From a bacterium (GTDB lineage Bacteria; Patescibacteriota; Patescibacteriia; UBA9570): 64,000 nt of DNA. Position numbers and translations under genes: made by a program. The notes under the pieces were generated by a model. It had not been told where the DNA came from. It was given only the letters and a program-made list of their open reading frames with translations, and did no database searches. Below are positions 1,304-62,730 of the stretch, piece after piece (within the stretch, counting starts at the first letter, position 1; each line of letters begins with the position of its first letter). Where the stretch lies: contig JAUYKW010000025.1 of NCBI GenBank assembly GCA_030698395.1, positions 68,179 through 132,178 on the forward strand, written 5' to 3'.

Positions 1304-1313
1304 TAAATAATAA

Positions 1314-3264: not shown

Positions 3265-3377
3265 CACAGAAAAAAACGGAAACATAGAAAAAGCGTGGTA
3301 ATCCCAACCACGCTTTTATGTATAAATTATAGAACCAATTAGAAATTATACAACTTAGTTGTCCACAATAACAATTT

Positions 3378-4187: not shown

Positions 4188-4230
4188 AATGAAATTATAA
4201 CACTAAATTACAAAAGGTGATAAATCTTAC

Positions 4231-45050: not shown

Positions 45051-46107
45051 GCTGTTTGATTAGTTTTTTGTATACTTGTTCATAGCCATCACCCATGCGT
45101 TCTATAGAAAAATTATTTTTTACCCATTCTCGACATGCTGCTCTATCTATAGTATCAATTTTTTTAATCGCATCCCTCATTTCATCTTCATTTTTTACAA
45201 CAAAGCCAGTAACGCCATCCTTGACCAATTCTGGTACAGATCCTTTATTGAATGCTATTACAGGTGTTCCGGTAGCCATGGCCTCTACCATTACTAAACC
45301 AAACGGCTCTTCCCACTCAATGGGAAACAACAAAGCCTTGGCTTGGCCTACGAACTTTGCAATTTTCTGATGTGGAAGTTCTCCCCTGTAACTAATGAAG
45401 GAGCTTTTTAAAGCGGGGTTAATTTTTTTCTCCCAGTAATTTCTATAAATCTCACGTTGCAAGTCTGTTGAGCCGGCAAGAATTAATTTTTTACGAAGTT
45501 TTTTACATACATTAATAGCATGATGTACACCTTTTGAAGGATGAAGTCTGCCAATAAAAACAAAATGATCTTGGGGAGACTTATTAAACTTAAATTGATT
45601 CACATCAATACCATTGTAGACCACATCTGTGTATTGAATTTTTTCTTTATAATGTTTAGTTTGGGCTTTTGATATTGGAGTTATATATACATTAGAAAAA
45701 GGTATCTGCTGAACAATGTTTTGCGTTAATGGTTCAATCGGCCAATGCTGAGTCATTAATGTTGGCTTATCAACCAATGATGACATAAAAAAATGTAAGT
45801 TATCCAAATGGCTATGTAAAATATCAAATTCTTCGATATGGCGATATGCTCTATTTAGGAGCAGTAGATAAGTATAGTGCTTTAACATCCGAGCCGAGGT
45901 AGCCGGACCCTTAATACTATCTGGTGTCAAAGGATCGAGGCTTTCAATCCGAGCTCCTTTGATATTGGTTTTACTGTTACCAAATACAGTCACTTCATGT
46001 CCGCGCCGTATTTGTTCTCGGATAAGTGATGTTACTAGCAACCAACGACCACGATCTCCTTTGGGTGGTAATTGTTGGGATGGGTTTGTAATATGTGCAA
46101 TTCGCAT
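45031..46107 (-). CDS. GT4 family glycosyltransferase
   Basis: EPFGLVMVEAMATGTPVIA ... GSVPELVKDGVTGF (E-x7-E region). Confidence 0.8.
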   Translation of the reverse strand: MRIAHITNPSQQLPPKGDRGRWLLVTSLIREQIRRGHEVTVFGNSKTNIKGARIESLDPLTPDSIKGPATSARMLKHYTYLLLLNRAYRHIEEFDILHSHLDNLHFFMSSLVDKPTLMTQHWPIEPLTQNIVQQIPFSNVYITPISKAQTKHYKEKIQYTDVVYNGIDVNQFKFNKSPQDHFVFIGRLHPSKGVHHAINVCKKLRKKLILAGSTDLQREIYRNYWEKKINPALKSSFISYRGELPHQKIAKFVGQAKALLFPIEWEEPFGLVMVEAMATGTPVIAFNKGSVPELVKDGVTGFVVKNEDEMRDAIKKIDTIDRAACREWVKNNFSIERMGDGYEQVYKKLIKQHEKKSL

Positions 46108-46592
46108 TATGCTGTACGATAAATATTTTTTGTCGGATCGATTAAAAATCCTTCCATATCGCGTTTGCCGATAAGTATGGGATATAAGAGCATTTTTCTA
46201 TCAACGATACTTGCAATCGTTTCGATTTTTTTATTACGCATTTTATATTCTAGCTTAACAAAGGGCCTTACAGTTATGCCGTTTGTTGCAGGAATTACTC
46301 GGATATCATATAAACCGGGAATTTGTTTTTTTAATTTAGGAGCAAGTACTGTACGAATTTTTTTCTTGATTTCTTTAAAATTTTTGGTGGTGATTTTTAA
46401 TTTGGGCATTTCTTTATTAAATTCTTCGTATACAGAAAGAAGGCCAATTTTTTTTGCGATACTAACATCGATTGCTGTTGTTCTGGCGCCAGTATCAATC
46501 TTTGCTTGACGACGAATAAATTTTCCATTAGGAAGATAAATTTTTACTTCTTCCACTAGGCCAAGAATAGGTTTTATTTTTTTATTATTCAT
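46107..46592 (-). CDS. retropepsin-like (clan AA, putative ATP-dependent zinc protease family) protein
   Basis: AKIDTGARTTAID DTG active-site-like motif; about 160 aa; adjacent to RimK-like ligase. Confidence 0.65.
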   Translation of the reverse strand: MNNKKIKPILGLVEEVKIYLPNGKFIRRQAKIDTGARTTAIDVSIAKKIGLLSVYEEFNKEMPKLKITTKNFKEIKKKIRTVLAPKLKKQIPGLYDIRVIPATNGITVRPFVKLEYKMRNKKIETIASIVDRKMLLYPILIGKRDMEGFLIDPTKNIYRTA

Positions 46593-47987
46593 TTATTTTG
46601 TCTTTGTTGGATTAACTAAGAAGCCAGCAAGATCTCGTCTGCCAATTATTATTGGATGAGATAGTTTATTATCCATTGCAATGGCAACCTGGGTGCTGAT
46701 GTTCTTTTTTCCTAACACGAATGATAGTGAAACTTTAGGACGGATTGTATATTTGTCACCACTACGTACAGCAACTATATCAACTATATCTTCGTGTAAT
46801 CCTTTAATTGAATGTTGAAATGATTCTTCTACTTGGCGAGCATCAGATGCAGAGACTATGCTGGGTAAAACGATAGAATCAAGTGCAGTTAAGGCGTCTT
46901 GAAAACCAAGGCGACGTGCTAGGTCTTTAGAAATTGTAGTAGATGTTAAACCAGTATCAATCCGAACACGCATAGCTTGTTGTTTGTTATTACGGTCTGT
47001 AATTTCGATTGATTCGTATACACCAATAACTGCTTTATCTTCTTCGGTTTCGGTATCGTTACTAAATAAATCTTTGCATACTTTTACTCCTTTTACTACA
47101 CTGGAAATATTCAGGCCCGCTACCCTTTCTAATCTATCTCGGAGAGTTGTTTGATTTGCATTTTGAATTTCTAATCCAGGATGCGCATTTACTTCTAATA
47201 TTACTGGCCCTTGTTGTTTGTCTATCACTATGTCAACACCCGCATAACCAAGGCCGACGGCTCGTTGAGCTTCTACACTGATGCGTAGTATTTCATTCCA
47301 GTTATTAATGTGTAAACCACGGAGACTAGTATTGTAATCTGGATGTACTGTTAGTTCTCCTACGTGTTTGGATGCCGCATAAGTGGTGATGCCTGTCGTT
47401 AAATCTATACCTACGCCTATTCCTCCCATATGTAGATTGGCTTTCCCCGAGGATGATTTTGTTGGTAGGCGTAACATGGCCATTATTGGTACAGAGTTAA
47501 ATACAATTACCCGAATATCTGGAATGCCTTTATAACTTACATGTTTAAATTCTTCTGATAATTTTAAGCGTTCTTCAAAGTATGCTATATCCGGGATATT
47601 TGATATTGAATAATTACCATCTAATATATTACTAACGCGCATCATTAAATCGTCTTCTGTATAGAATTCGTTGCTCCCCCCAATCCATTGATTGTTTTTG
47701 TTTTTTCCATAAACAATAAGAATACCATTACCACCTAGACCAAAGTTTGGTTTTAATACAAAGCTTGGTGGGAGCGATGACCAATCAAATTCAAAGAGTT
47801 CACGACGATCATGAATTTCAGAAAATATTTTTGCTGTTGGCAGACCATGTTTTAATAGACGTTCTTTGGTTGCTAGTTTATTACGAGCAAGCTGAATAGA
47901 CGAACGTTTGTTATTCGGACGAATATAGCGCAAATTGCGAGCGTTCATACCAAGAACACGACTTGATTTAGCAAAGAATTCACTCAT
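46593..47987 (-). CDS. RimK-like ATP-grasp amidoligase (alpha-L-glutamate-ligase-related) fused to C-terminal retropepsin-like domain
   Basis: ATP-grasp core (VLKPNFGLGGNGILIV ... VNAHPGLEI) in first about 300 aa; C-terminal about 150 aa repeats the DTG (VRIDTGLTSTTIS) fold of the neighbouring gene. Confidence 0.7.
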   Translation of the reverse strand: MSEFFAKSSRVLGMNARNLRYIRPNNKRSSIQLARNKLATKERLLKHGLPTAKIFSEIHDRRELFEFDWSSLPPSFVLKPNFGLGGNGILIVYGKNKNNQWIGGSNEFYTEDDLMMRVSNILDGNYSISNIPDIAYFEERLKLSEEFKHVSYKGIPDIRVIVFNSVPIMAMLRLPTKSSSGKANLHMGGIGVGIDLTTGITTYAASKHVGELTVHPDYNTSLRGLHINNWNEILRISVEAQRAVGLGYAGVDIVIDKQQGPVILEVNAHPGLEIQNANQTTLRDRLERVAGLNISSVVKGVKVCKDLFSNDTETEEDKAVIGVYESIEITDRNNKQQAMRVRIDTGLTSTTISKDLARRLGFQDALTALDSIVLPSIVSASDARQVEESFQHSIKGLHEDIVDIVAVRSGDKYTIRPKVSLSFVLGKKNISTQVAIAMDNKLSHPIIIGRRDLAGFLVNPTKTK

Positions 47988-47989
47988 TG

Positions 47990-49612
47990 TTATGCGGAGG
48001 GTTTTTTAAATAATTTACGGAAACGAATATATTCAAATAAACGCAAACCAGTGAAGCGACCAAATACAAAATTAAGAACCAGAGTTAGCAATACAGCCTC
48101 AGGGTAAGCCATAATAAATGTTTCAAATACACCCCAAGTAACAATGCCGTAACTAATTATAGCCAAGACTAACGTTTCTATGGTCAATACAATTGCGGTA
48201 CGGTTGCCTTGTTCAATTTGAGCTTCTACAAATTTTTCAGTAAGAATAATCATGACTAAAATAGGAAAGATAGAAATAGTTACAATTGAGCTTCTACCTA
48301 AATAACTAGCAGCAATAAACATGATAAATATCGACAAACTAACGATTGTTAAAACTATGGCCATGCGGGGCATGTACAAAATACGTAAATATCGAACTAA
48401 TAATCTAGATACAGTTGCTACTACTAGTAATAGCAAGAATAGAACTAAACCATATTTTAATTGAGTAACTACAAAAGTTAGAGCGATAATAGATGGAACG
48501 TAGATACCAAAAGCTTTTACACCAACTATTTGTCTACCAAAGGCAATGATTGTAGCTACAATCGGTAGGATGAGTAAAAGGAATAAAGTATCTGGACTAA
48601 CACCCTGATTGATCAGATAGTTAATACCATAAGAGAAAAAATTAAACGGAGATATTGTATCTAACACTCGTTGGCTATGACGTCCAATAATTTGATAATC
48701 GATATTATTGGATTGCAAACTTGAAGTTAGAGTATCAGCTGAAGGATTGGCAAGGATGATTTCTAATGCTGGAGTAGTTGTAAGTAGTACATATTGTGGC
48801 GTGATGATGTTAAAAGTACTTTGAGCTAACCTAGCTAAAGCAGACCCTGCGGTTTTATCATCAATTCTTACGATGGCTTTCTGGCTGAAGCTAGCACTAG
48901 ATGTAGCAACATCTCCATTTGAAGAGGTAAATATTCTACCAACTTCAGATAGTGCATTTAGGCCAATATTTTTTCCGGTCCAGGTAATGATTAAATTGGC
49001 TTGAGCCAAATCTTCCTCTGACGTTACTAATTGTTCCGCAATATTTCTAGAGAGAGCATAGTTTGGATCGTTTTCATTTGTTGGTTTTACCGAAACCAAA
49101 AGAGTGCCGTGTCTTTGGGCATAGTCTTTAAGTTTTTTTAAATCATCCTTTGATACAGAATTGTCGGTAATAAGTAATACAACGTCTTTTGCGATAGAAA
49201 CTAACAATGTGTCTTTGGATACTTTTTCGCCATCAGTAACTGTTATTCTTGCTTTATACGTTCCTGGTTCAGCATAAATATGCGATGCGTCTATACCAAC
49301 AAATTGTTCCCCATCCCCAAAATCCCAAGTGTAGATTAATTTTTCATCAGTTGGACCAGTAGAACCAGATGCATCAAATACAATATTGCGTCCTACCACA
49401 CCATTTTTATCTTTGCCCGCAGATGCAGCCAATGGCGTTGCTTCGATTATTTCTTCCTCTTTCGCATTGTTCCCATCTTGAGAAGATTCAGTATTAGCAA
49501 CAACGACCTCGTCAGTAACCGGATTTTCAATAACAGTCTCTTGTGCAGAGACGTTTGGCCAAGGTGACAAGCTAAAAAGGAGAACAATAATTATCGTTAG
49601 TTGTTTTTTCAT
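47990..49612 (-). CDS. signal peptide + PKD domain + C-terminal multi-TM (7TM-like) membrane protein
   Basis: Cleavable signal MKKQLTIIIVLLFSLSPWPNVSA; PKD motif FDASGS...YTWDFGDGE...HIYAEPGTYKARITVTDG; C-terminal about 200 aa with 6-7 hydrophobic helices. Confidence 0.55.
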   Translation of the reverse strand: MKKQLTIIIVLLFSLSPWPNVSAQETVIENPVTDEVVVANTESSQDGNNAKEEEIIEATPLAASAGKDKNGVVGRNIVFDASGSTGPTDEKLIYTWDFGDGEQFVGIDASHIYAEPGTYKARITVTDGEKVSKDTLLVSIAKDVVLLITDNSVSKDDLKKLKDYAQRHGTLLVSVKPTNENDPNYALSRNIAEQLVTSEEDLAQANLIITWTGKNIGLNALSEVGRIFTSSNGDVATSSASFSQKAIVRIDDKTAGSALARLAQSTFNIITPQYVLLTTTPALEIILANPSADTLTSSLQSNNIDYQIIGRHSQRVLDTISPFNFFSYGINYLINQGVSPDTLFLLLILPIVATIIAFGRQIVGVKAFGIYVPSIIALTFVVTQLKYGLVLFLLLLVVATVSRLLVRYLRILYMPRMAIVLTIVSLSIFIMFIAASYLGRSSIVTISIFPILVMIILTEKFVEAQIEQGNRTAIVLTIETLVLAIISYGIVTWGVFETFIMAYPEAVLLTLVLNFVFGRFTGLRLFEYIRFRKLFKKPSA

Positions 49613-50890: not shown

Positions 50891-51934
50891 ATGATAAATA
50901 CAGATAAAATCAAACAATTAGATAGCCAAAACATGCTTGGAAGTATTGATCAGCTTGCAAGTCAGGTAAAACATGCTTGGGATGCAGTGAAACAAATAGA
51001 AGTTCCTGAACACTACAAAGAATGTAAGAATATTGTGTTATTTGGTATGGGCGGATCAGCATTGGGCATGGATATTATTAAAGCAGTTTATTCAAACCAA
51101 ATTACTGTACCAATTCACATTCAAAATGATTATGCAGTACCTAAATTTGTAGATAAGAATTCTTTGGTAATTCTTTCTAGTTACTCCGGTACAACTGAGG
51201 AGGTTGTGGCAACTGCATCAGAAGTAGCAGAATTAACTGATCGTATTCTAGTGGTCACAACCGGTGGTAAGTTGAGTGAATTAATGGAAGAAAAGAAGTA
51301 TCCTGGATACTTAATAGAGCCGACGTTTAATCCATGTGGTCAGCCACGTATTGCTGTAGGATATGCAACAATTGGATTGCTAGGATTATTGAATAACGTT
51401 GGTTTGGTAAAATTATCAGATCAAAACATTGATGATGTTGTACATTTTTTAGAAGGCAATCGAGAATTATTGCGGGATGATGCTATGCGAGTAGCTAGTG
51501 ATACAGAGCAATATATTCCAGTATATATTGGTAGTGAATTCTTGGCTGGAAACGTTCATGTAATGTCTAATCAGACAAATGAAAATGGTAAGCACTTTTC
51601 AACCTGGAAATTAATACCAGAGTTGAATCATCACCTCTTGGAGGGATTGGAAAATCCTGCGGGCAATACGGATAAAATTAGATTTATTTTTTTAGAGTCA
51701 AATTTGTATCATGTGCGTAATCAGAAACGCTATGAAGTTACGAAGCAGGTGTTAGAAGAATTAAAAATGACATATTCAGTATTTGTACCTACTGCAAATA
51801 ATGAATTATTACAATCGTTTGAAACTTTGCAATGGGGAAGTTATTTAAGCTTTTATTTATCTGTACTAAATAACATAGATCCATCACCGATCCCTTGGGT
51901 GGATTATTTTAAGGATGCACTTAAAAAGCCGTAA
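50891..51934 (+). CDS. bifunctional phosphoglucose/phosphomannose isomerase (SIS domain, archaeal type)
   Basis: SIS motif VLFGMGGSALG and overall about 350-aa PGI/PMI layout. Confidence 0.7.
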   Translation: MINTDKIKQLDSQNMLGSIDQLASQVKHAWDAVKQIEVPEHYKECKNIVLFGMGGSALGMDIIKAVYSNQITVPIHIQNDYAVPKFVDKNSLVILSSYSGTTEEVVATASEVAELTDRILVVTTGGKLSELMEEKKYPGYLIEPTFNPCGQPRIAVGYATIGLLGLLNNVGLVKLSDQNIDDVVHFLEGNRELLRDDAMRVASDTEQYIPVYIGSEFLAGNVHVMSNQTNENGKHFSTWKLIPELNHHLLEGLENPAGNTDKIRFIFLESNLYHVRNQKRYEVTKQVLEELKMTYSVFVPTANNELLQSFETLQWGSYLSFYLSVLNNIDPSPIPWVDYFKDALKKP

Positions 51935-53453
51935 AGGAGAAATTGCCTTCTATACGGCAGTAGCTTTATTTAGCGGGATTTACTTTAGTATTTTGCAATG
52001 GCCAAGTAGCTTTGCTGATCCTGATTCTTTTTATCACGCAAGGATAATTCAGCAGATTTCTGAGCATGGATTACTCTATGCATTTCCTTGGCTCCAAGCT
52101 ACAACGCTTGCAGAAAAGTTTACAGATCATCATTTGTTGTATCATTTATTCTTGGTTCCATTCACGACCGTGCTAGATCCTGCAACTGCAGTCAAAGCCG
52201 GGCAGGTGGTGTTACTAGTAATTTTATCATTAGTTCTAGTATCTATATTACGGCGTTGGAAGTTGTCTTATAGTTGGGCCGCTTTGTTCATACTCTATAC
52301 AATTTCACCTTTTGTAGTACGGATAAATTTAGTTAAAGCAACAGCTTTGGCGATGATTATTTTGTTAGGTATTTTTATTTTATTGTTAGAAAGAAAATAT
52401 GGTTTAGTGGCACTATTGACTGTGGCTTATACCTGGGCGCATGGTGGATTTATATTGGCATGGTTAGTTGCTATGATGATTTGGCTGGCAGACATTGTTA
52501 CACAATCTATAAAACGAAAAAGAATTTATTTTGAAGATCCACGGGGTGTGATAATGGTTACGTTGGGCATTATAGCGGGCATAATAATAAATCCATATTT
52601 TCCACAAAACTTATTTTTTTTCTGGGAACAAGTTGTTCAGATCGGTTTCATTAATTATCAAGAAGTTATAGAGGTAGGAGGTGAATGGTATCCATTTGCG
52701 CTCGATCAGTTAACGGGGTTACTTAGTATTTTGCTTATTGCCGTATTGTTAGCCTGTATGATTTTTGTGTGGCAAAGAAAGAAATACTTTACAGACATCA
52801 AAGCAGTTAGCTTATTGTTTATAGCGATAATGTTCTTTTTTGCAACTTTACGCTCACGGCGTAATGTAGAGTATTTGGTTCCATTTTTGTGGTTGTGGAC
52901 ATGTTATTTGGTTTTGCCCTATCTAGAATCAGGAGCTTGGAAGGTTCATCTTAAAAAGCTAAAGCAACAATTAGGAAAGGTGTTTACAGTATTAGCTGTT
53001 TATTTACTAATTGTTATTCCGCTGGCATCAATTAAAAATGTATTTGAAGCACAAGAAGATTTAAGTGAGGGCATTGATTTGTCCACTTATCAGGCAGCTG
53101 GGGAGTATATGAAAGAAAACATCCCTGTGAATACAAATATATTTCACACACAATGGGATGAGTTTCCTATGTTGTATTATCAGAATTCGAATAATTATTA
53201 TTTAGTAGGACTCGATGCAACATTTATGTATTTAGATGACGCTGACAAATATCGGCGCTGGCGAGAGATATCCGAAGGCAATGTAAAAGAGCATTTATCT
53301 ACAATAATAAATGAAGAGTTCAATTCATCATATGTTTTTATAGGGCGTTCTACAAAAAGTTCTCAGTTGCTTGATGCATATTTGTTTCGTGATCCAGAAG
53401 TAATCCTTGAATACGAAGATGAATATACGAGGATATATAATCTAGGCACATGA
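51915..53453 (+). CDS. GT-C-fold-like polytopic membrane glycosyltransferase candidate, paralog 1
   Basis: About 11 TM helices; first extracytoplasmic loop motif ADPDSFYHARI (acidic-aromatic loop reminiscent of STT3 FDPYFNYR / ArnT-PMT DE loop); C-terminal soluble domain. Confidence 0.45.
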   Translation: MHLKSRKGEIAFYTAVALFSGIYFSILQWPSSFADPDSFYHARIIQQISEHGLLYAFPWLQATTLAEKFTDHHLLYHLFLVPFTTVLDPATAVKAGQVVLLVILSLVLVSILRRWKLSYSWAALFILYTISPFVVRINLVKATALAMIILLGIFILLLERKYGLVALLTVAYTWAHGGFILAWLVAMMIWLADIVTQSIKRKRIYFEDPRGVIMVTLGIIAGIIINPYFPQNLFFFWEQVVQIGFINYQEVIEVGGEWYPFALDQLTGLLSILLIAVLLACMIFVWQRKKYFTDIKAVSLLFIAIMFFFATLRSRRNVEYLVPFLWLWTCYLVLPYLESGAWKVHLKKLKQQLGKVFTVLAVYLLIVIPLASIKNVFEAQEDLSEGIDLSTYQAAGEYMKENIPVNTNIFHTQWDEFPMLYYQNSNNYYLVGLDATFMYLDDADKYRRWREISEGNVKEHLSTIINEEFNSSYVFIGRSTKSSQLLDAYLFRDPEVILEYEDEYTRIYNLGT

Positions 53454-54973
53454 AACGATTATTGTCGAAAGATCATTTAATATTATACTTACTCACTAGT
53501 AGTATATTTGTTTTATTTTTATTTAATCAGTATTCATCCGTGTTAGCAGATCCGGATTCCTTTTATCATATGAAAATGGCACAGTTGTTGTTGGATCAAG
53601 GAATAATTAAGGATTTTATATGGTTACCATACACTACTTTAAGTGAACATTTTGTTAATCAGCATTTATTGTTTCATGTATTATTAGCACCATTTGTTAC
53701 GTGGGGAAATCCATTTTTGGGTGTAAAATTATTTACGGCGTTATTAGGTACAACTGCAATCATTAGTATTGCGTTATTGCTACGAAGTTTAAAGTTGCGT
53801 TGGTGGCTTTTGGCAACAGTTATTTTAACGCTTACTGTTACCTTTACATTTCGATTGAACTTAGTAAAAGCATCGCCACTGTCGATGATATTGTTGTGCG
53901 TGGTAATTTGGTGTTTGATAAAAAAAAGAAATTGGTTATTAGCGGTTACGAGCATGGTTTTTGTGTGGAGCTATGGGGGCTTTTTTCTTGTTATCCCAGT
54001 TGTTTGTATTTGGATAATTGCTAATGCAAAAAAAGCTTTATGGAAAAAACCTGGTATATTTAAAAACCTAATAATTTTAATAAGACCACTATTGGCTGCT
54101 TGTGGGGGTATAATAATTGGATTACTTTTTAACCCATACTTTCCTGATAATTTATATTTTTATTGGGAGCAGGTAGTACAAATTGGAATTATAAATTACG
54201 GAGATAGTATCGGCGTGGGCGGTGAGTGGTATTCATATTATCCTCACGAATTATTTATTGGTTCTTTATGGCTTACTTTTATATTTGGCGGAGCATTGTT
54301 TTTTAAAATCATAAATCGGTTAAAGTGGAAAGAGTTGGATTGGTTTGTACTTGGTTTGTCTATTTTTGGAATGTTGTTAACATTTAAATCACGGCGCTAT
54401 GTGGAGTATTTTGGTCCGTTTACAATTCTTGCTGCGGCTACTTGGTTGAATGAGTTAAAAACTGATTCATTAAAACGTTTGATAAAAAGCGATATGCCAT
54501 TGAGAAAGATGGTAATGTGCTTACTACTAACAGCTTTTTTGGTTATTAGTGTTGTTCCGATAATTCTCCATGATAGCATTACTAACGCCAGTGATGTACG
54601 TGAGGGTTATTCGATTACACAATATAAGGATGCTAGTGAATGGTTGAGCATAAATGCAGTTCCGGGTAGCAATGTGATGCATAGTGATTGGGATGATTTT
54701 CCCATGTTGTTTTACTACAATAGCAATGTTAATTATATGGCCGGCTTAGATCCAACATTTATGTATCGTTATAATGAAGATCTGTATTGGATGTGGGTAG
54801 AGATTACCCTTGGTACTTATAAAGGAGATTTAGGAGATGCCCTATCTAAGCTAAATGTAAAGTACATTTTTATTGAAAGTAATCATACGGAAATGTATAA
54901 CTTATTTAATGAATATAAAAAAGTAAAACTTATTTATACTGATGAAGAAGCTGACATTTTTGTAGTACTGTAG
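53450..54973 (+). CDS. GT-C-fold-like polytopic membrane glycosyltransferase candidate, paralog 2
   Basis: Same architecture and motif (ADPDSFYHMKM; shared NPYFP, WEQVVQIG, VGGEWY, DDFPMLFY); tandem paralog of 51915..53453. Confidence 0.45.
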   Translation: MKRLLSKDHLILYLLTSSIFVLFLFNQYSSVLADPDSFYHMKMAQLLLDQGIIKDFIWLPYTTLSEHFVNQHLLFHVLLAPFVTWGNPFLGVKLFTALLGTTAIISIALLLRSLKLRWWLLATVILTLTVTFTFRLNLVKASPLSMILLCVVIWCLIKKRNWLLAVTSMVFVWSYGGFFLVIPVVCIWIIANAKKALWKKPGIFKNLIILIRPLLAACGGIIIGLLFNPYFPDNLYFYWEQVVQIGIINYGDSIGVGGEWYSYYPHELFIGSLWLTFIFGGALFFKIINRLKWKELDWFVLGLSIFGMLLTFKSRRYVEYFGPFTILAAATWLNELKTDSLKRLIKSDMPLRKMVMCLLLTAFLVISVVPIILHDSITNASDVREGYSITQYKDASEWLSINAVPGSNVMHSDWDDFPMLFYYNSNVNYMAGLDPTFMYRYNEDLYWMWVEITLGTYKGDLGDALSKLNVKYIFIESNHTEMYNLFNEYKKVKLIYTDEEADIFVVL

Positions 54974-55039
54974 GGAAAAAGCTAAAAACAAAACAGACCT
55001 CGATTAAGAGATCTGTTTGAATATGTAAGTATTTGTTCT

Positions 55040-55414
55040 TTACGCTCCTGTGAAATTCAACAAGTTGTTGATTGCATAGGTTGAAAGTCCCCAAGCTGCT
55101 AAGATGATCACTAAACCAATTAAGGCAGCGATTAAAAGCTTTTTGGCGCTTTCTACTTTTTCTTCATTACCACCAGCAGTCATCCATCGGAATCCACCGA
55201 TAAGAATCATGATAACGGCAACTAGCGCTAGTAGGCCTAATACCCAATTTACTACGCTTACGGCTAGATCCACTGGACTGGAATTACCCAATACTAGTGA
55301 GTTACCAATACCAGATGTATCTATAGTATCTACAGTTGCTGCACTAGCAATGTTTGCTGTTAGCAATGTAGCAGATCCTACTGCCAAATAACCTAGTTTT
55401 TTAAATTTATTCAT
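55040..55414 (-). CDS. VirB2/TrbC-pilin-like small secreted membrane protein, paralog 1 of 10
   Basis: Signal peptide (ATLLTANIASAAT), variable segment, then conserved hairpin LALVAVIMILIGGFRWMTAGGNEEKVESAKKLLIAALIGLVIILAAWG. Confidence 0.55.
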   Translation of the reverse strand: MNKFKKLGYLAVGSATLLTANIASAATVDTIDTSGIGNSLVLGNSSPVDLAVSVVNWVLGLLALVAVIMILIGGFRWMTAGGNEEKVESAKKLLIAALIGLVIILAAWGLSTYAINNLLNFTGA

Positions 55415-55544
55415 AGCGAATTGCGTTAAGAATATTGTTAGTTAGATATTTTTTTAATTCTCCTATTTATGGATGCAATTATAGCACATCTAGAATTGAT
55501 TGTAAATGTTTTATAGACAGGTAGATAGAGGAAAGAAAAAGTTA

Positions 55545-55574
55545 TTGACTTCAGAGGGTAAAATGTGGTATGCT
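55545..55574 (+). promoter_or_regulatory. candidate sigma70-like promoter for the plus-strand pilin-like array
   Basis: TTGACT - 18 nt - TGgTATGCT (extended -10), upstream of paralog 2. Confidence 0.3.
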
Positions 55575-55582
55575 ATTTATCA

Positions 55583-55993
55583 ATGCAGACTACTAAATAT
55601 AATTTATCGTTTGCAACATTTGCAAGAACATTGGCAATTGCTTTTTTAATTACATTCCCATTTGCAGTTAGTGCATATACTTTAGGATTTGATCCTGCAG
55701 TTGGTGACACGGAGCAACCATTACAGAAAGCAAGTCAATTAGGAACTGCAGATCCAACTCAAATTATCTTTACTATTATTAATACTAGTTTGATATTTCT
55801 AGGATCCATAACCTTAATTATGGTAATTGTAGCAGGCTTTATGTGGTTGTTAGCAGGTGGATCTGAGGAAAAGATAAAGAAAGCAAAAGACTTACTTAAA
55901 GGAGCGACAATTGGTTTGGTTATTGTATTGTCATCATTTGGATTGGCGAATTATGTGTTTACAGCTCTCCAAAGCGCAATTATTAGTAATTAG
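55583..55993 (+). CDS. VirB2/TrbC-pilin-like small secreted membrane protein, paralog 2
   Basis: Start at MQTTKYNL; signal peptide ...FPFAVSA; LGTADPTQ then IMVIVAGFMWLLAGGSEEKIKKAKDLLKGATIGLVIVLSSFG. Confidence 0.55.
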   Translation: MQTTKYNLSFATFARTLAIAFLITFPFAVSAYTLGFDPAVGDTEQPLQKASQLGTADPTQIIFTIINTSLIFLGSITLIMVIVAGFMWLLAGGSEEKIKKAKDLLKGATIGLVIVLSSFGLANYVFTALQSAIISN

Positions 55994-56433
55994 TGAGTTT
56001 AATGACACATCAAACAAAGAGTATAAAAATTTTTTTCATCAGCGCTTTAGTGATAGCTGTTGGATTATTCGTGGCTTTCCCTCCTGAATTGGTAGGTGCA
56101 GCTAACATATCTATAAATCCAATTGATGCTAGCGGTGAGTGGGGTAATTTAACCGATACCGGCTTAGGAACAACCGATCCCGTTGTTGTGGCATCTCAAA
56201 TAATCAACATACTTTTGCGAGTATTAGGACTGTTTTCATTGATAGTTATGCTATATGGTGGATGGTTATGGATTTGGGCAAGGGGAAATGAAGAAACTAT
56301 TAGTAAGGCTAAGGATATTTTAGTAGGTACGTTTATTGGCCTAATTATCATTTTGGCTTCATATGGGATTTTGCAGTGGGTATTTTATTATCTAGCAGAC
56401 ATTACAAATGCAGGTGGCGGAGCAAGCGCTTAA
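55993..56433 (+). CDS. VirB2/TrbC-pilin-like small secreted membrane protein, paralog 3
   Basis: LGTTDPVV ... LYGGWLWIWARGNEETISKAKDILVGTFIGLIIILASYG. Confidence 0.55.
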   Translation: MSLMTHQTKSIKIFFISALVIAVGLFVAFPPELVGAANISINPIDASGEWGNLTDTGLGTTDPVVVASQIINILLRVLGLFSLIVMLYGGWLWIWARGNEETISKAKDILVGTFIGLIIILASYGILQWVFYYLADITNAGGGASA

Positions 56434-56923
56434 AAAAAATAGTTTTAAGTTTTTATTAGTAGCATGTTTAATACTGATATGTTTGCCTTTGGTAGGTATT
56501 GCAGTAGATAGTGAATCACCAGCTGAACAGGAAGATCCAACAAAAGGATATCTGCAGTTTGATCCAGCAGATAATACGAAAGTAAAAGAAGGTGGCCCCG
56601 ATGTAGCGCTTACTACAGTAAATCGACTGACATTTTTATCTGGAGGCAATGATCCATTAAGTATTTCTTTGAATATTATTAATGTGTCTCTTACCTTTTT
56701 AGGTACTTTATCAATGATAATGATTTTGTATGGGGGTGTAGTATGGTTTACATCAGGTGATAATGAGGAGAAGCTGGGCAAGGCTAAACAAATTATTATA
56801 GGAGCAATTATTGGATTGGTATTAACATTGGGTGCTTATTCAATAAGTACTTTAGTGTTTGATCAGATAAGTACTGCAACACAGAGACAAGACGATTCTT
56901 TATCGGAAGCACTTAATGATTAG
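56408..56923 (+). CDS. VirB2/TrbC-pilin-like small secreted membrane protein, paralog 4
   Basis: GGNDPLSI ... LYGGVVWFTSGDNEEKLGKAKQIIIGAIIGLVLTLGAYS. Confidence 0.55.
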   Translation: MQVAEQALKKNSFKFLLVACLILICLPLVGIAVDSESPAEQEDPTKGYLQFDPADNTKVKEGGPDVALTTVNRLTFLSGGNDPLSISLNIINVSLTFLGTLSMIMILYGGVVWFTSGDNEEKLGKAKQIIIGAIIGLVLTLGAYSISTLVFDQISTATQRQDDSLSEALND

Positions 56924-57419
56924 TAATATCAAGGATAGAATTTTAATATCAGGGTGGGTGATGGTAATTTTTTTAACTTTATTCATGCCATTTTTGGTAT
57001 TTGCCGCACCTACAACCGAGGATACTGCGCCTGTCTATACAAAGGACGCACTACCATTTGATCCAACGCAGGCGGCTCAGATAGAGTTAAAGTATCACGC
57101 AAAGGAACAATGGGAGGCCGGAAGACTTAGTACGATATGGCAACTTGATCTTGGTAGCGCTGATCCATTGTCTATAACGCTTAACATAATTAATATTGTA
57201 CTTACTTTCCTAGCTTCTGGATTTTTGATACTCTTAATGTACGCTGGAGTGTTATGGATGATAGCTCGTGGTAATCAGGAGCAAATTGATAAATCAAAAA
57301 AAATTATTCAACGAGCAGTTATTGGTTTAATCATTGTACTGGGAGCGCTTAGTATATCATCAACTATCTTCTATTTTATCGAACCTAGCTTTCAGGAGCC
57401 GGAAGCAGAAACACCATAA
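56916..57419 (+). CDS. VirB2/TrbC-pilin-like small secreted membrane protein, paralog 5
   Basis: LGSADPLSI ... MYAGVLWMIARGNQEQIDKSKKIIQRAVIGLIIVLGALS. Confidence 0.55.
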   Translation: MISNIKDRILISGWVMVIFLTLFMPFLVFAAPTTEDTAPVYTKDALPFDPTQAAQIELKYHAKEQWEAGRLSTIWQLDLGSADPLSITLNIINIVLTFLASGFLILLMYAGVLWMIARGNQEQIDKSKKIIQRAVIGLIIVLGALSISSTIFYFIEPSFQEPEAETP

Positions 57420-57428
57420 ACAAAAAAT

Positions 57429-57866
57429 ATGTATAAAAAACTCACTAGTTTATTTCTCATCATAGCATTAAGCATTACAGTGTTTTCTCTGTCTACAGCA
57501 CCTGCGTATGCGTTAAATTTTTTTCCAACATCAGATAATACTGGTCAATTAAATAATACAGCAGACACCGAAATAGCCTTAGGAGGAGTAGCCGCAACTC
57601 AAGTAGCGCTAGACTTAGTTAACTTGGCTTTATCATTACTAGTTACTCTATGTTTAATACTATTATTATATGGTGGTTTTTTATGGATCTGGGCACGTGG
57701 TAATGCTGAACAAGTACAGAAAGCAAAAGATATTATTCAGGGTACAGCTATTGGCATAGTTATCGTATTGTCAGCTTTAGGAATTACACAATTTGTATTC
57801 ATTCAGGTAGCTGATATTACAGGAGCGACCGTTGATACCGCTGAAGAACAAGCATCAACTCCTTGA
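57429..57866 (+). CDS. VirB2/TrbC-pilin-like small secreted membrane protein, paralog 6
   Basis: Signal peptide ...APAYA; LYGGFLWIWARGNAEQVQKAKDIIQGTAIGIVIVLSALG. Confidence 0.55.
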   Translation: MYKKLTSLFLIIALSITVFSLSTAPAYALNFFPTSDNTGQLNNTADTEIALGGVAATQVALDLVNLALSLLVTLCLILLLYGGFLWIWARGNAEQVQKAKDIIQGTAIGIVIVLSALGITQFVFIQVADITGATVDTAEEQASTP

Positions 57867-57893
57867 TGATTTTTAGAATGATATAAATCATCA

Positions 57894-58316
57894 GTGAAAA
57901 CAAGAATTATGAACAAGAATATTATGAATAAAGTTAAAAACATTGGTTTATCGCTGGTTATTGCGGGAGTATGTGTTGTGCCTGCAATGGCGATGGCTTA
58001 TACTCCTCAAGCTGTAGTATTTGATCCAGGTAGTAATGTAGAACGAAACACTGGTTTAGGTAACGCAAGCCCTACAGATGTAGCTGCTGGTATAATTAAT
58101 TGGGTGCTGGGGTTATTAATGATTATCTCCGTAATCTTGATTATCTACGGAGGTTTTATTTGGATGTTTTCACGTGGAAATGAAGAACAGGTAACTAAAG
58201 CGAAGGATATTTTAACTGGAGCTTTAATTGGAGCGGTGATTATTTTAGCGTCTTATGGAGCATCGTATTATGTATTTGAAAATTTACTAAATGCAACTGT
58301 AAATGGAGTTGCTTAA
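57894..58316 (+). CDS. VirB2/TrbC-pilin-like small secreted membrane protein, paralog 7
   Basis: LGNASPTDV ... IYGGFIWMFSRGNEEQVTKAKDILTGALIGAVIILASYG. Confidence 0.55.
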   Translation: MKTRIMNKNIMNKVKNIGLSLVIAGVCVVPAMAMAYTPQAVVFDPGSNVERNTGLGNASPTDVAAGIINWVLGLLMIISVILIIYGGFIWMFSRGNEEQVTKAKDILTGALIGAVIILASYGASYYVFENLLNATVNGVA

Positions 58317-58734
58317 GGGACGAAACATTTTTTTAATTCTAGGTACTATAGTGCTTTTATTTGCATTTTCTATACCGGCTAATGCTCAACCCAGAAAGAC
58401 ACTTAATGAGTATGACCAAGTCATACAAAATGAAACTCAGTTAGGGGGAATTGAGGTAAGTGAAGCGGGAGCGCTTAATTCTGCAGTAGTATTAGGTGGC
58501 CCACTTGATATGGCATCACAAATAATTAATTTATTACTTGGTTTGTTAGGAACAATAAGTGTTATTTTTATGTTTTATGCGGGATGGTTATGGATGATTG
58601 CTCGTGGTAATCAGGACCAAGTAAAAAAAGCCAAAGATATTCTAACCGGAACCGTCATTGGATTGTTTTTTATTCTAGCGTCTTATACGCTATTAAACTT
58701 TGTATTTAGAAGCTTGGTTACGATAACTAACTAA
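58303..58734 (+). CDS. VirB2/TrbC-pilin-like small secreted membrane protein, paralog 8
   Basis: Signal ...SIPANA; FYAGWLWMIARGNQDQVKKAKDILTGTVIGLFFILASYT. Confidence 0.55.
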   Translation: MELLKGRNIFLILGTIVLLFAFSIPANAQPRKTLNEYDQVIQNETQLGGIEVSEAGALNSAVVLGGPLDMASQIINLLLGLLGTISVIFMFYAGWLWMIARGNQDQVKKAKDILTGTVIGLFFILASYTLLNFVFRSLVTITN

Positions 58735-58741
58735 TCTTGCC

Positions 58742-59092
58742 TTATCCAGTAGCAGCAGATTGAAATACAGCAAAGGTGTATTGTAAGATTGCGTAACTAC
58801 TTAAAATTATAGCCAAACCAATGGCTGCCCACAATAATGTGCTACGGCCTTTTTTGATTTTCTCTTCGTTTCCACCAGAAAACAATACTTTAAAACCACC
58901 CCAAATGAACATTAACAAGGTAGCTGCACCTACAATACCTAATAATGCTTGAATAATTGCTCCAATAATAAGAATTGGTTCTGCATCTTCGGCACCGGCA
59001 AATGGTGGAGCGAGACTTTCGGTGGCGGCCGCTATGCTAGGGAGGCTTAGAAAAAGAGCTGTGGCGGCAACTGTTTTGATTTTAGTAAACAT
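58742..59092 (-). CDS. VirB2/TrbC-pilin-like small secreted membrane protein, paralog 9
   Basis: Start set at MFTKIKTVAATALFLSLPSIAAA; IWGGFKVLFSGGNEEKIKKGRSTLLWAAIGLAIILSSYA. Confidence 0.5.
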   Translation of the reverse strand: MFTKIKTVAATALFLSLPSIAAATESLAPPFAGAEDAEPILIIGAIIQALLGIVGAATLLMFIWGGFKVLFSGGNEEKIKKGRSTLLWAAIGLAIILSSYAILQYTFAVFQSAATG

Positions 59093-59112
59093 AGAGTAGT
59101 AACTAATAATAT

Positions 59113-59970
59113 TTAATATTTTACAACGCATGTTTTGCCAGTTTCTGTACAACTGTAATCTAGTTTCAAATAGAGAGATTCATTTGCTTTATAAGCCGAT
59201 GTAGCAACACACTCTGCTTTACGCCCTTCAAGGCTAGATATGTTTAGATTGTTTATTAGAGTACAATCACTAGAGCAATAGCATTGTTTTTTATCCATTC
59301 CAGCATCACTTTCAGCAGTAGCTAGATCCGGTGCGTCTGTTGTGCATTTATTATCATCACCTTCAGGATTTAGTTTACGGTAACAAATACAATTAGATCC
59401 TTTTTCTTTGCAATCACCAACGCCACCACAATAGTTACCAGCTGGCTGGCCAGCACAAGATTTACCAACTGGTAAACAGGCTGGAGGTTCCCACCAGGCT
59501 GAATCAAAGATTGTTGCTTTATTGCTTCCTTGTTCACCACTAAATATATTGCCTGATTCGGCAGTACTGTAATAAGCAGTGCGGACAATGAAGTTTACGG
59601 CAAACCAAGCGAAAAATACGATAGCTAACCCAGTAACAGTTCCTATTAGGATCTTTTTTCCAGTTTCAACTCGCTGTTCATTTCCAGAGGAAAATATTAA
59701 GAAGAACCCACCAACAATAAACATGATCAATGAGAGCGAGCTAACGGAAGCTGCTATTAAATTAGCTGCATTGGTAAATATTAAAGTGACGTCACAGATA
59801 TTACAACCAATAGAACTTTGCCAACATTTTGATGGCACTATAGAAATACCAAAACCAGCAGTGGCAGGGTCTTCTGCTTGAGTAGCAAATGGAATTGCTA
59901 AGAACGCCAGTAATAAAACAGCCGTTTTTATGCTACGGACAATATTGTTGCGGAGGCTATTATTAATCAT
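59113..59970 (-). CDS. pilin-like family paralog 10 with about 130-aa Cys-rich C-terminal extension
   Basis: First about 150 aa have family core (IVGGFFLIFSSGNEQRVETGKKILIGTVTGLAIVFFAWF); C-terminal region has 13 Cys in CxxC/CxC-like spacing (NCICYRK, QCYCSSDC). Confidence 0.55.
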   Translation of the reverse strand: MINNSLRNNIVRSIKTAVLLLAFLAIPFATQAEDPATAGFGISIVPSKCWQSSIGCNICDVTLIFTNAANLIAASVSSLSLIMFIVGGFFLIFSSGNEQRVETGKKILIGTVTGLAIVFFAWFAVNFIVRTAYYSTAESGNIFSGEQGSNKATIFDSAWWEPPACLPVGKSCAGQPAGNYCGGVGDCKEKGSNCICYRKLNPEGDDNKCTTDAPDLATAESDAGMDKKQCYCSSDCTLINNLNISSLEGRKAECVATSAYKANESLYLKLDYSCTETGKTCVVKY

Positions 59971-61342
59971 AAGTAAGTGCTACTTTACTAGCGGTATTTT
60001 TTACAGCAGTGTTTACATCTAATCGTCCTTCATTGATGATTGTTATCATGTCGGCAAACTGATCTTCAACTTCTTTTGGTTGTGATCCTGCATACCAGCT
60101 TTGAGCAGTTAGGGATTGATCGGCGAATACAGAAAGTACGTAATCTTCTTTTTGTTCCTCTAAAAGAGTTTTGAGAGCAGATGGTTTTTTAGTGGCAGTA
60201 AGGTATTTTTTAACTTTTGCATTTTCAGTAGTTATAGCCTCTATTAATGCCCAGGCCTCATCAGTTACTTTACTATTAATTGATACGGTTTCTAGCCAGT
60301 AATTAGCGTAGTTAATATTGTTGTTAATATTAACTTGTGGCATAGGTGCTAAATCAAAATTTAAATTTGGAGCACGATTGTTTATTTGTTTTAGATCGTA
60401 GTGATAGCCAAAGTAGAAAGCTGTATCGCCATCAATGAAGGATTCCAGTGCATCTGATTGGTCAGCATTCCAGCTGTACCATTCAACATCTGGATTAGCA
60501 AAACTGGTATAAAATTCTACTGCTTGGTTACCAGGATTGTATCCGCGTCTTTCTTTTAGATCTGTTTGAAAAGTAACATTGGAGCCACTAGTCATAACAG
60601 CACCATTTTGCAACATTAACAGTGATATGATGTCAAAAGAGCGAGGAATGTTGTTGCTAGTTCCTAATGCAGCTCCAGACTGGATGATGTTATTATCAAT
60701 ATCAACTAAGGTTAGCCGGGGAACTTGTTCGACAAACTGATCCCATGTTTCTGGTGGGAGGGCAATTTTTGCTTGGCTTAGCATGTCTTTGTTGTAGTAT
60801 AAGACCATTGTGTCCATAGAAAGAGGAAGCGCAAATATCTTTTCTGTTGCCTTATCTTTGCTAGTTGCTTTGTGCACCATGACTACGTCATCTGAGACAA
60901 CTTGTGGGAATGAACTGCCTAGTTGTTGAACGGAAATAGTGCTGAGGGTTTGGGGAGTTACTACTAATTCTTTTTGGCCTAGACTTTCTTTTGTTTCAAC
61001 TGATGTTATTGCAATAGTAGCAGGCATTGGTTCAATGAGATCTTCAAATTTACCAAGATGAGAGTTTGGTATTGAAAAAATATCTGGACCTTCACCTTGA
61101 GCCCAAGCAGAAATTAATTCGTCTTCATAGTTTTGGATGTTTAGCTGTCTGTATTCTACTTGAATATACGGATATTTTACGGCAAATGCATCAAAGGCAC
61201 CTCTAAGATCTGCATCGCTATTTACAACAGACCAATATTTTAAAACAATGGTACTGGGAGAGGTATCTTTACTTTTGCATATGGCTCCACTAAAAATTAA
61301 TAGTGAAAGCAATAGTCCAACGCCAAAAATACTTTTTTTCAT
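59963..61342 (-). CDS. extracellular solute-binding protein (ABC transporter family 1, sugar-type), lipoprotein-like signal
   Basis: N-terminal signal/Cys (LLIFSGAIC), about 440-aa SBP_bac_1-like layout; no permease/ATPase partner in window. Confidence 0.65.
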   Translation of the reverse strand: MKKSIFGVGLLLSLLIFSGAICKSKDTSPSTIVLKYWSVVNSDADLRGAFDAFAVKYPYIQVEYRQLNIQNYEDELISAWAQGEGPDIFSIPNSHLGKFEDLIEPMPATIAITSVETKESLGQKELVVTPQTLSTISVQQLGSSFPQVVSDDVVMVHKATSKDKATEKIFALPLSMDTMVLYYNKDMLSQAKIALPPETWDQFVEQVPRLTLVDIDNNIIQSGAALGTSNNIPRSFDIISLLMLQNGAVMTSGSNVTFQTDLKERRGYNPGNQAVEFYTSFANPDVEWYSWNADQSDALESFIDGDTAFYFGYHYDLKQINNRAPNLNFDLAPMPQVNINNNINYANYWLETVSINSKVTDEAWALIEAITTENAKVKKYLTATKKPSALKTLLEEQKEDYVLSVFADQSLTAQSWYAGSQPKEVEDQFADMITIINEGRLDVNTAVKNTASKVALTYD

Positions 61343-61401: not shown

Positions 61402-62637
61402 CTAAGTGATGTTGTATACAGACTGTAAGAGGTTGGAAAATTGAGATGATATTTCCTGATTAAATGAAGGATCTTGATAGATTAGTAAATCAACGTATCG
61501 TTTTACAGGCCAGAAGCGAGTTTGTCTAGGGATATTGATGTATTTAGATGGAAGATGAACATCACAAGCAAAGTGTTCTAGTTGAAATACATTATCTTTA
61601 TCAATGGTTTTTTCAGCTAAAATTAACGGTAGGTCATCATCAAAATTCATCAAGTCTTTCAGTGTAAACCAAAAAGAGTTGGTGTTGAACCATTTTATCG
61701 AGTCTTGATCGAAATTTGGCGGAAATTTCATTTGCTCTACAATAATAAGTTCTTCATCAACGAAACATGGAGCTCCACCTTGATCGCCGAGTTCTTTAGT
61801 TGCCAATTCCACAGTACGGCCATATTTGTGGTTTACATGGTAGCCTAATAAAGCAGGATCAATAGTTGCGCCAAGATTATCAATGTTTGCAAAAAATAGA
61901 TATTTTACATTTGGAATGTGTGCAGAACGTAAATAATCTTGTAGTAAGTAAATAAAATCTCCATGACCACATGGTGCAAATGATAAGGATCCATCAGTTG
62001 TAACAAATAAATCAATATTTTTTAGGTTATCAACTTTTGTAAATCTGGGCATTGTTGGTTGTTGGACAACAAAATGAAATCTTTCTGGGTCTAGATCTGG
62101 ATATTTCTTATATAGAGCATTTAAATGCTTTCTAGTTTGTTCATCTGTAATGAAGCTATTCATTATCACAACTTGGGGATGAACATCTAGTTTTGATTGT
62201 TTGGTAATTTCTAGTAGATTACGAATTTTTAATTCTAAATAACTCATGTCATCAATTACTGGTGCTACTCCCTTTGGCAGATTAGTAATTTCTGGAGTAA
62301 TTTTATTCAGTGCAGTTTGATAGCGAATTTGTTCTTCTGGAGTTACTTTAGATTCATCAAAATATCGCGTGGCTGCGCCTCCGTTTAACCAAAAAACTAA
62401 GAGTTCATCATCTTTGAGAGCGTCATTTCCCGCGTTGATCATCTTTTGAGTGTCTAGATTAGAATACTCATTGATATCGGAATTGGTTGGTGGTCTTAAA
62501 CGGTTTTTATCTATCACAAAAGAGCTGTGATCTAATTCTCCAGACTGTAATTTCACATGCAGTGATTTAATATGATCTGGATCGATACCTTGAACTTTTA
62601 GTTTGTTACGAATTTCATCGCGGTCTATGTGTAACAT
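61402..62637 (-). CDS. UDPGP-family UTP--sugar-1-phosphate uridylyltransferase (eukaryotic/archaeal-type UGPase/UAP-like)
   Basis: Pyrophosphorylase loop VFWLNGGAATRYF (compare L-N-G-G-L-G-T), nucleotide-binding core, about 410 aa. Confidence 0.65.
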   Translation of the reverse strand: MLHIDRDEIRNKLKVQGIDPDHIKSLHVKLQSGELDHSSFVIDKNRLRPPTNSDINEYSNLDTQKMINAGNDALKDDELLVFWLNGGAATRYFDESKVTPEEQIRYQTALNKITPEITNLPKGVAPVIDDMSYLELKIRNLLEITKQSKLDVHPQVVIMNSFITDEQTRKHLNALYKKYPDLDPERFHFVVQQPTMPRFTKVDNLKNIDLFVTTDGSLSFAPCGHGDFIYLLQDYLRSAHIPNVKYLFFANIDNLGATIDPALLGYHVNHKYGRTVELATKELGDQGGAPCFVDEELIIVEQMKFPPNFDQDSIKWFNTNSFWFTLKDLMNFDDDLPLILAEKTIDKDNVFQLEHFACDVHLPSKYINIPRQTRFWPVKRYVDLLIYQDPSFNQEISSQFSNLLQSVYNIT

Positions 62638-62730
62638 ATCTAGAGTAATATAGCATTTATAGGGTCAAATTTCAAGGGGTTTGTTAAGAAATGTTTAATG
62701 TGAAAACTAATCTTGTGTTATGATACGGGT

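Follow-up and report, generated by a model that had tools for sequence, protein, structure and literature searches.

Ten small pilin genes lie side by side at positions 55040-59970 of the analysed 64-kb stretch of DNA (the window), which is part of a 141,432-bp contig and was studied together with 9 kb of its 5' flank and 7.4 kb of its 3' flank; the outer flanks were recovered from Logan assemblies of the same sample, SRR13727534. All ten products match the Pfam family T4SS_pilin, and seven of the genes form one operon. We read the array as a fixed heteromeric set of VirB2-type subunits, assembled by a type IV secretion system (T4SS) encoded elsewhere in the genome, which we hold to be probable rather than firm. 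Arrays of this kind have been published and the ten proteins are already named 'pilin' at NCBI (MDP3971069.1 to MDP3971078.1), while the gene-for-gene orthology, the gene fusions and the neighbours described below, resembling oligosaccharyltransferases (OST) or encoding a solute-binding protein (SBP), are new details. The proposed host is a Kerfeldbacteria-like Patescibacteria cell of class ABY1: the nearest relatives of a flanking 507-aa protein come from metagenome-assembled genomes (MAGs) of Patescibacteria and Candidatus Kerfeldbacteria, and Kerfeldbacteria are placed in class ABY1 in Table S1 of PMC12102498.

In agreement with the initial annotation, the listing of open reading frames (ORFs) gives ten intact adjacent genes, one on the minus, seven on the plus and two on the minus strand, with identical coordinates (Table 1). 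Since all ten frames are intact and each includes a signal peptide, the alternative that the copies are pseudogenes is not borne out. In all ten copies, hydropathy reveals a segment of the signal type and then two hydrophobic helices, as predicted at the outset, and an AXA-type cleavage site after the h-region can be read from every sequence. Behind a short segment that cannot be aligned, the ten copies share a conserved core of ~80 residues, and their alignment reproduces the previously proposed consensus as DPxxIA..IIN..L..LG..SLIM..YGGF.W..ARGNEE.V.KAKDIL.G..IGLVIIL.AYG. A hidden Markov model (HMM) of this core detected no eleventh copy elsewhere in the window, hence the clustering is not due to chance. 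The part in front of the core had been described as a segment of 40-90 aa that is completely different between copies. Measured on the mature proteins, the N-terminal variable segment comprises 9-47 aa; an FDP motif shortly past the predicted cleavage site is common to pilins 2, 4, 5, and 7, and several variable segments are kept between orthologues. The AlphaFold2 model of mature pilin 1, based on 76 homologues, has a disordered N-terminus of 21 residues followed by helices spanning residues 22-54 and 59-96, with a mean predicted local distance difference test (pLDDT) score of 80.9 and values above 90 in the helices.

The resemblance to T4SS pilins, which the initial annotation had left for an HMM search, was confirmed by PF18895 (T4SS_pilin), matched by all ten copies with E values from 1.2e-15 to 2.3e-5. 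Eight copies (28.1-57.8 bits) pass the gathering threshold of 26.6 bits; pilin 3 falls short of it by 1.8 bits and pilin 5 by 0.2 bits. PF04956 (TrbC/VirB2) was reached solely below threshold, by three of the ten copies (E 0.012-0.098); on many database homologues the two families are found together. As a reference for authentic VirB2/TrbC we used six MPF_T plasmid genes, each located between virB1 and virB3. Against these six, hhalign returned a probability of 95.3% for the pilin-1 family (E 2.3e-8, 76 columns), in line with the VirB2/TrbC likeness noted before, and of 94.6% for the profile of the ten paralogues (E 7e-8); against a single VirB2 sequence the probability was 40%. The alignment is in register over the end of the signal peptide, G-x-x-DP, helix 1, the loop, and helix 2, with the NI...G...W motifs aligned. 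Judged by these profile comparisons, we accept a remote homology of the array pilins to VirB2.

Genes 2-8 overlap or are separated by gaps of at most 27 nt and form one tightly packed operon on the plus strand. Pilin 1 is flanked by signals of its own. On its 5' side lies a promoter-like site (55478..55506, minus strand; TTTACA-17-TATAAT with TG) that has 11 of 12 matches, the best of the region, and is a consensus match only; on its 3' side lies a terminator-like hairpin (54991..55018, minus strand) with an 11-bp stem and a T-run. At the other end of the array, the gene of a UDP-sugar pyrophosphorylase (UDPGP) is probably the first of a transcription unit that continues with the SBP gene, pilin 10, and pilin 9. 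It is preceded by a promoter-like site with TG at 62647-62675 (10 of 12 matches).

A metagenome scan with the pilin-1 family yielded 80 related loci (numbered with the prefix L), which were mapped with our own ORF and HMM assignments; counts given out of 34 refer to those loci that are flanked by 3.5 kb or more on either side. The Kerfeldbacteria locus L002 has the corresponding ten genes in the same order and on the same strands, and its flanks correspond as well. In L004 (Kerfeldbacteria) and L008, a 257-kb JGI contig, the set is the same except that one merged gene stands for pilins 4 and 5. BLOSUM score matrices are strongly diagonal, so that each pilin of the window has a positional orthologue with 41-66% identity, and paralogues score far lower; the identity of the other copies to pilin 1 is 20-47%. 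The one-to-one relationship persists though the neighbouring protein is just 37-53% identical between the genomes. Between the window and L002, the cores of orthologues are 49-80% and their variable segments 7-58% identical; between paralogues the core is 38% identical and the variable segment 15%, which is the random level. An example of a retained segment is the N-terminus of pilin 7, YTPQAVVFDPxSNVERN, which is kept in its orthologues. Two genes likely start at internal codons. For pilin 2, which has orthologues at the same place of the array in L002 and L004, the internal ATG at 55583 is the likely true start, and for pilin 9 it is likely the internal ATG at 59092, an independent gene call in L005 giving 116 aa.

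At the nucleotide level, the copies of the array share at best 60-74% similarity over 57-89 nt. Neither inverted repeats of the invertible, switch-like type nor near-identical tracts that would permit recombination or switching were found between the copies. Neighbouring pilins are fused in five independent loci, where a single ORF encodes two complete hairpins and thus four helices (Table 1). The two are linked by what remains of the second pilin's signal peptide. As one hairpin ends and the following one begins on the outer side of the membrane, these fusions are topologically consistent, and their recurrence implies co-assembly. Taken together, the orthologues, the packing of the operon and the fusions speak for a fixed set of specialised subunits that are co-expressed and co-assemble, and against antigenic or phase variation.

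Within this set, pilin 1 has the highest core identity to its orthologue (80%) and also the top family score. In L001 and L011 it is retained next to the GT-C genes described below, where other copies are absent nearby. From its own promoter-like site and terminator, top score, best conservation, and retention, we infer that pilin 1 is the major subunit. Pilin 10 differs by a 149-aa extension past the hairpin that contains 16 Cys, the positions of which are kept in the orthologues. The extension has no Pfam match at E values up to 5. Pilin 10 is a candidate tip or adhesin subunit.

In the mechanism we propose, each pilin would be exported by Sec and cut at the AXA site, leaving a two-helix hairpin in the membrane with both ends outside and the charged loop (RGNEE.V.KAKD) inside. 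The subunits would then be pulled from the membrane and polymerised into a surface filament or a wall-spanning conduit by the T4SS encoded elsewhere. Pilin 1 would form the bulk of this structure as major subunit, and pilins 2-8, encoded by one translationally coupled operon, as well as the adjoining pilin 9 would be co-assembled as minor or specialised subunits. The short exposed N-termini of pilins 2-9 would give each of them a distinct surface. Pilin 10 with its Cys-rich ectodomain and the coupled SBP may provide the distal or adhesive component.

Arrays of 3-12 pilin-like genes are common among the 80 loci, and their surroundings are recurrent as well. In 24 of the 34 loci, a gene no more than 4 kb away from the array encodes a member of the 507-aa OST-like family or a DUF2079 protein. 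Other recurrent neighbours are GT2 glycosyltransferases (21 loci) and nucleoside diphosphate (NDP)-sugar transferases (12 loci), further methyltransferases, a RodZ-like protein, PPDK, PBP1, SMC, and DnaA. In the window, a secreted SBP is coupled to pilin 10; it is an orphan with no ABC permease nearby. The same junction of an SBP followed by a pilin was observed in 17 of the 34 loci. The gene directly after the SBP, with a gap or overlap of a few bases, is typically pilin-like and often long. Such long pilins measure 233-648 aa and contain 15-59 Cys, and all that could be placed lie directly downstream of an SBP.

Table 1. Positions of the pilin genes, their fused relatives and the neighbouring genes. 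Coordinates refer to the window, except for the fusions, which are given in the coordinates of the respective locus.
Feature	Position	Strand	Remarks
Pilin 1	55040..55414	-	124 aa; PF18895 57.8 bits; MDP3971069.1; monocistronic
Pilin 2	55565..55993	+	142 aa from GTG; PF18895 28.9 bits; first gene of the seven-gene operon
Pilin 3	55993..56433	+	146 aa; PF18895 24.8 bits; orthologue identity 56%
Pilin 4	56408..56923	+	171 aa; 44-aa variable segment; PF18895 33.1 bits; TrbC E 0.012
Pilin 5	56916..57419	+	167 aa; 47-aa variable segment; PF18895 26.4 bits; 8-nt overlap with pilin 4
Pilin 6	57429..57866	+	145 aa; PF18895 37.1 bits
Pilin 7	57894..58316	+	140 aa; PF18895 36.8 bits; closest paralogue of pilin 1 (47% identity)
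Pilin 8	58303..58734	+	143 aa; PF18895 32.3 bits; last gene of the plus-strand operon
Pilin 9	58742..59152	-	136 aa from TTG, 116 aa from ATG at 59092; PF18895 44 bits
Pilin 10	59113..59970	-	285 aa; PF18895 28.1 bits; MDP3971078.1
Pilin-pilin fusions	L004 12661-13584; L008 8141-9052; L027 10916-11755; L034 1627-2406; L075 1133-3079		
Secreted SBP (SBP_bac_1/8)	59963..61342	-	Pfam; stop overlaps pilin 10 start by 8 nt
UDP-sugar pyrophosphorylase (UDPGP)	61402..62637	-	Pfam; synteny in L002 and L008
GT-C membrane protein a, AglB/STT3-like	51915..53453	+	512 aa; 32% identical to paralogue b
GT-C membrane protein b, AglB/STT3-like	53450..54973	+	507 aa; NCBI hypothetical Q8P90_05270

The two paralogous GT-C membrane proteins that flank the array, a and b, have no Pfam match, STT3 included, even at an E value of 5, and no sequence match in the PDB. 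Their family comprises more than 500 proteins named 'hypothetical', and all taxon-named members are from Patescibacteria-group MAGs. A homologue with 37% identity to the OST-like protein was also found in L003 (CAZRYK010000046.1), labelled 'uncultured Gammaproteobacteria', which is probably a binning or labelling error. The AlphaFold2 model of paralogue b has a pLDDT of 95.2 and a predicted template modelling (pTM) score of 0.93. In a Foldseek search with this model, STT3, AglB, and PglB rank at the top (E 1e-9 to 3e-6), before DPY19, ArnT, ALG12, and AftD, and the flanking genes combine a GT-C core with a C-terminal domain of the OST type. Residues invariant in the family include D34-P-D36 of the first outer loop, E259-W260, S314/R316, and, where the soluble domain begins, H-S-D-W-D-D-F-P; paralogue a keeps the corresponding motifs as DPD, GGEW, SRR, and WDEFP. 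We take the order of these motifs to resemble that of the catalytic DxD, the EL5 glutamate, the lipid-pyrophosphate arginine, and the WWDxG of PglB/AglB, the last of which is not identical. With AglB, STT3, and PglB, the flanking proteins share the acidic DPD in the first outer loop, E-W, SRR, and, as the soluble domain begins, a motif that contains WD; they differ in having SDWD(D/E)FP instead of WWDxG and in their much smaller size (507 aa). The two previously unannotated enzymes look like protein N-glycosylating oligosaccharyltransferases.

N-x-S/T sequons of 192 unique pilin-like proteins were counted over the segments predicted to be exposed, and the count was compared with 200 composition-preserving shuffles. 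A total of 129 sequons was observed, compared with 93.8 +/- 8.8 after shuffling, and none of the 200 shuffles reached 129. A position-specific N-x-T right behind helix 2 is present in 48 of the 192 proteins, including pilin 1 (NFT) and pilin 7 (NAT). The signal is modest, much of it is due to this one conserved site of the subfamily that includes pilins 1 and 7, and the link it makes between the pilins and the OST-like enzymes is suggestive only. It is possible, though on the doubtful side, that the pilins or the filament are N-glycosylated in an ABY1 module that comprises the array, one or two OST-like enzymes, the SBP-coupled long pilin, and sugar-nucleotide enzymes; such a module may even work without a T4SS. 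A literature search, which was not exhaustive, found nothing that links AglB, PglB, or STT3 to Patescibacteria. Should the glycosylation hold true, the phylum would have its first proposed system for the OST-dependent N-glycosylation of proteins, and conjugation-type pili their first glycosylated example.

The assembly of the array pilins by a T4SS has to be weighed against several results. The absence of VirB4, VirB6, and VirD4 from the window, already stated in the initial annotation, was confirmed by a Pfam scan of every ORF of at least 110 aa, on which we also rejected the idea that T4SS parts are hidden in it. VirB3 and VirB8 are missing from the window too, none of the five is encoded in the 9 kb of 5' or the 7.4 kb of 3' flank, and in 33 of the 34 related loci no T4SS gene was found within ~10 kb of the array. 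In addition, the hhalign scores of hydrophobic hairpins may be inflated by composition. Solved conjugative pilins were not matched by sequence when the pilin profile was compared with the PDB, which returned chance membrane matches only, and a Foldseek search of the PDB with the model of the pilin hairpin had its best E value at ~1, with no conjugative pilin among the first 50 matches. This last search is uninformative because the helical hairpin fold is generic. The T4SS link is supported by a single locus among the 34, L017, which has a pilin-1-like gene directly upstream of a T4SS-type ATPase (1060-4230). The ATPase of 854 aa matches TrwB_AAD_bind, T4SS-DNA_transf, TraG-D_C, and DUF87, and is thus of the TraG/VirD4/VirB4 type. 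This locus ties the pilin-1 subfamily to a T4SS by context, and the other 33 show that the arrays of the subfamily are usually located apart from the machinery. T4SS loci of ABY1 usually accompany comF, recG, and radA (PMC12102498), none of which is present in the window. On the side of a T4SS, Table S1 of the same study lists VirB4 for some, not all, Kerfeldbacteria assemblies.

The main rival reading is an envelope module that would be independent of a T4SS and would have co-opted the VirB2 fold. The hairpins would then work with the AglB/STT3-like GT-C enzymes, the SBP, and sugar-nucleotide enzymes, either as N-glycosylated surface or membrane subunits or as partners of the glycosyltransferases. 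Several observations are in its favour: 24 of 34 loci have a gene for an OST-like or DUF2079 protein no more than 4 kb away and 17 have an SBP, the neighbours that recur most often besides these are GT2 and NDP-sugar transferases, the core of the module is kept while the outer flanks vary between lineages, pilin 1 stays by the GT-C genes where the rest of the array is gone, T4SS genes occur in just one locus, and sequons are enriched in the exposed segments (129 vs 93.8 +/- 8.8). All of these loci, however, were collected as relatives of pilin 1 (at least 44% identity), and their synteny may be inherited and not functional. One relative (L017) adjoins a T4SS ATPase, the modest sequon signal stems mostly from one conserved N-x-T site of the pilin 1/7 subfamily, and arrays of Saccharimonadia sit inside T4SS clusters (PMC12857230, PMC10633639). 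We consider such a module unlikely. Quite unlikely, in our view, is that the pilins belong to a T4SS but form a short wall-spanning channel or membrane component instead of an extended pilus. VirB2 is needed for substrate transfer even in systems without visible pili. A channel would agree with the very short exposed segments of 9-47 aa, with the monoderm envelope of Patescibacteria, given that T4SSs of Gram-positive bacteria normally lack pili (PMC12102498, PMC12857230), and with a possible role of the T4SS of the phylum in import (PMC11665869). Ten distinct subunits, one of them with a Cys-rich ectodomain, nevertheless exceed the needs of a simple channel.

Another possible reading is an antigenic or host-range repertoire, in which the copies would be expressed singly or shuffled by recombination. 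The variable exposed segment next to a conserved core (15% vs 38% identity between paralogues) is in its favour, as is the analogy with the VirB2 paralogues of Bartonella and Anaplasma drawn in PMC12102498. Nevertheless, positional one-to-one orthologues persist across diverged genomes, every copy has its own start and signal peptide, genes 2-8 share one operon, long near-identical tracts and invertible-type repeats are missing between the copies, and the recurrent pilin-pilin fusions imply co-assembly. A repertoire is hence highly unlikely, and we rejected antigenic or phase variation in view of the complete copies with signal peptides, their one-to-one orthologues, and the lack of switch-like repeats. 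Of the alternatives offered in the initial annotation, 'major plus minor subunits' is therefore favoured, while its 'hypervariable', antigenically varying copies are disfavoured by the one-to-one orthologues of these old paralogues, by the shared operon, and by a nucleotide similarity between copies of at most ~74% with no repeats of the invertible type.

The fixed set of VirB2-type subunits favoured here can be compared with several known systems. Quinonero-Coronel et al. 2025 (PMC12102498) describe 441 VirB2 arrays from 383 Patescibacteria assemblies. The pilin genes (PF04956/PF18895) number 2-11 per array, their mean identity is 25% and the maximum 54%, and the authors suggest that the arrays may aid adaptation to different hosts. 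In Southlakia epibionticum ML1, a series of predicted pilin genes inside the T4SS cluster is essential (Wang et al. 2023, PMC10633639); a 2025 review describes it as six structurally conserved, sequence-divergent VirB2-like pilins (PMC12857230). With at least two tandem PF18895/PF04956 genes of low identity in a Patescibacteria genome, the locus is an array in the published sense. It shares with those of PMC12102498 and PMC10633639 the tandem genes of these families, the low identity (here 20-47%), and a place on the chromosome, here ~20 kb from dnaA, of an ultra-small bacterium with a monoderm envelope. It differs in its distance from T4SS genes, as a pilin is found near virB4 in 1135 of the 1948 assemblies of the published survey, and in its host, which is ABY1/Kerfeldbacteria-like, while published arrays are most abundant in Microgenomatia and Saccharimonadia. 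Gene-for-gene orthology, fusions, and OST-like or SBP neighbours are not mentioned in the available parts of PMC12102498 and PMC10633639.

With the VirB2/TrbC proteins of MPF_T systems, such as the Agrobacterium T-pilin (PF04956), the array pilins have the signal peptide, G-x-x-DP, two hydrophobic helices, and the short inner loop in common. MPF_T VirB2 is encoded by a single copy adjoining virB1 and virB3 on plasmids, whereas here ten copies occur with no machinery nearby, and the loop between the helices is 7 residues longer and charged. The pilin-like protein Mbov_0395 (NF045849) of a Mycoplasma integrative and conjugative element (ICE) is likewise a small two-helix hairpin of a wall-less or monoderm T4SS. 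Its model matches all ten copies weakly; with a cutoff of 40 bits, pilin 1 scores 40.1 and the other nine 10.7-29.8. Mbov_0395 is, however, a single gene inside the ICE and not part of an array. The VirB2 paralogues of Anaplasma and Bartonella, cited in PMC12102498, are also several diverged tandem copies in a host-dependent bacterium. Those copies are read as antigenic or host-range variants, while orthology, packing, and fusions point to a fixed set here.

A T4SS together with a pilin array is essential in the one genetically tractable Patescibacterium (PMC10633639), and effector export, import of DNA or nucleotides, and attachment have been proposed as roles of the T4SS in the phylum. The locus described here speaks for the many pilins being, in one lineage at least, components of a heteromeric structure and not variants that can replace each other, which leaves fewer models to test. 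A fixed set of ten parts has been conserved across deep divergence. The recurrent AglB/STT3-like neighbours are a lead on how the contact apparatus of these host-dependent cells is decorated; they also draw attention to a large enzyme family, so far unannotated, that has more than 500 homologues.

The window is part of the core chromosome around the origin and contains rnpA, yidC, dnaA (35442), and dnaN. A PilT-like type II/IV secretion ATPase (T2SSE, 350 aa) is encoded at 31898-32950 on the minus strand and adjoins this yidC/rnpA/dnaA/dnaN region; no further type IV pilus genes were found in the window. The 9 kb of 5' flank encode two giant surface proteins. At window positions 1-1303 and L006 1921-10744, a 2084-aa surface protein with cadherin/Big_9 repeats, inside whose gene the window begins, is adjoined by an 800-aa Bact_surface_Ig-like protein; both are large candidate adhesins of the same cell. 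Between 14050 and 15780, an island of 60-67% GC interrupts the 35% GC genome. It contains a single gene, a pyridoxal phosphate (PLP) aminotransferase (14117-15724), for which only three homologues of 48-50% identity were found among 5.8 billion proteins; the one that could be placed (L098) lies on a low-GC contig and is itself of normal GC content. A cluster on the minus strand at 43584-49612 encodes a glycogen-synthase-like GT5, a GT4, a RimB-like zinc protease, a sugar-transfer-associated ATP-grasp protein, and a PKD-7TM_transglut membrane protein, and is syntenic with the pilin block in L007, L008, and L011.

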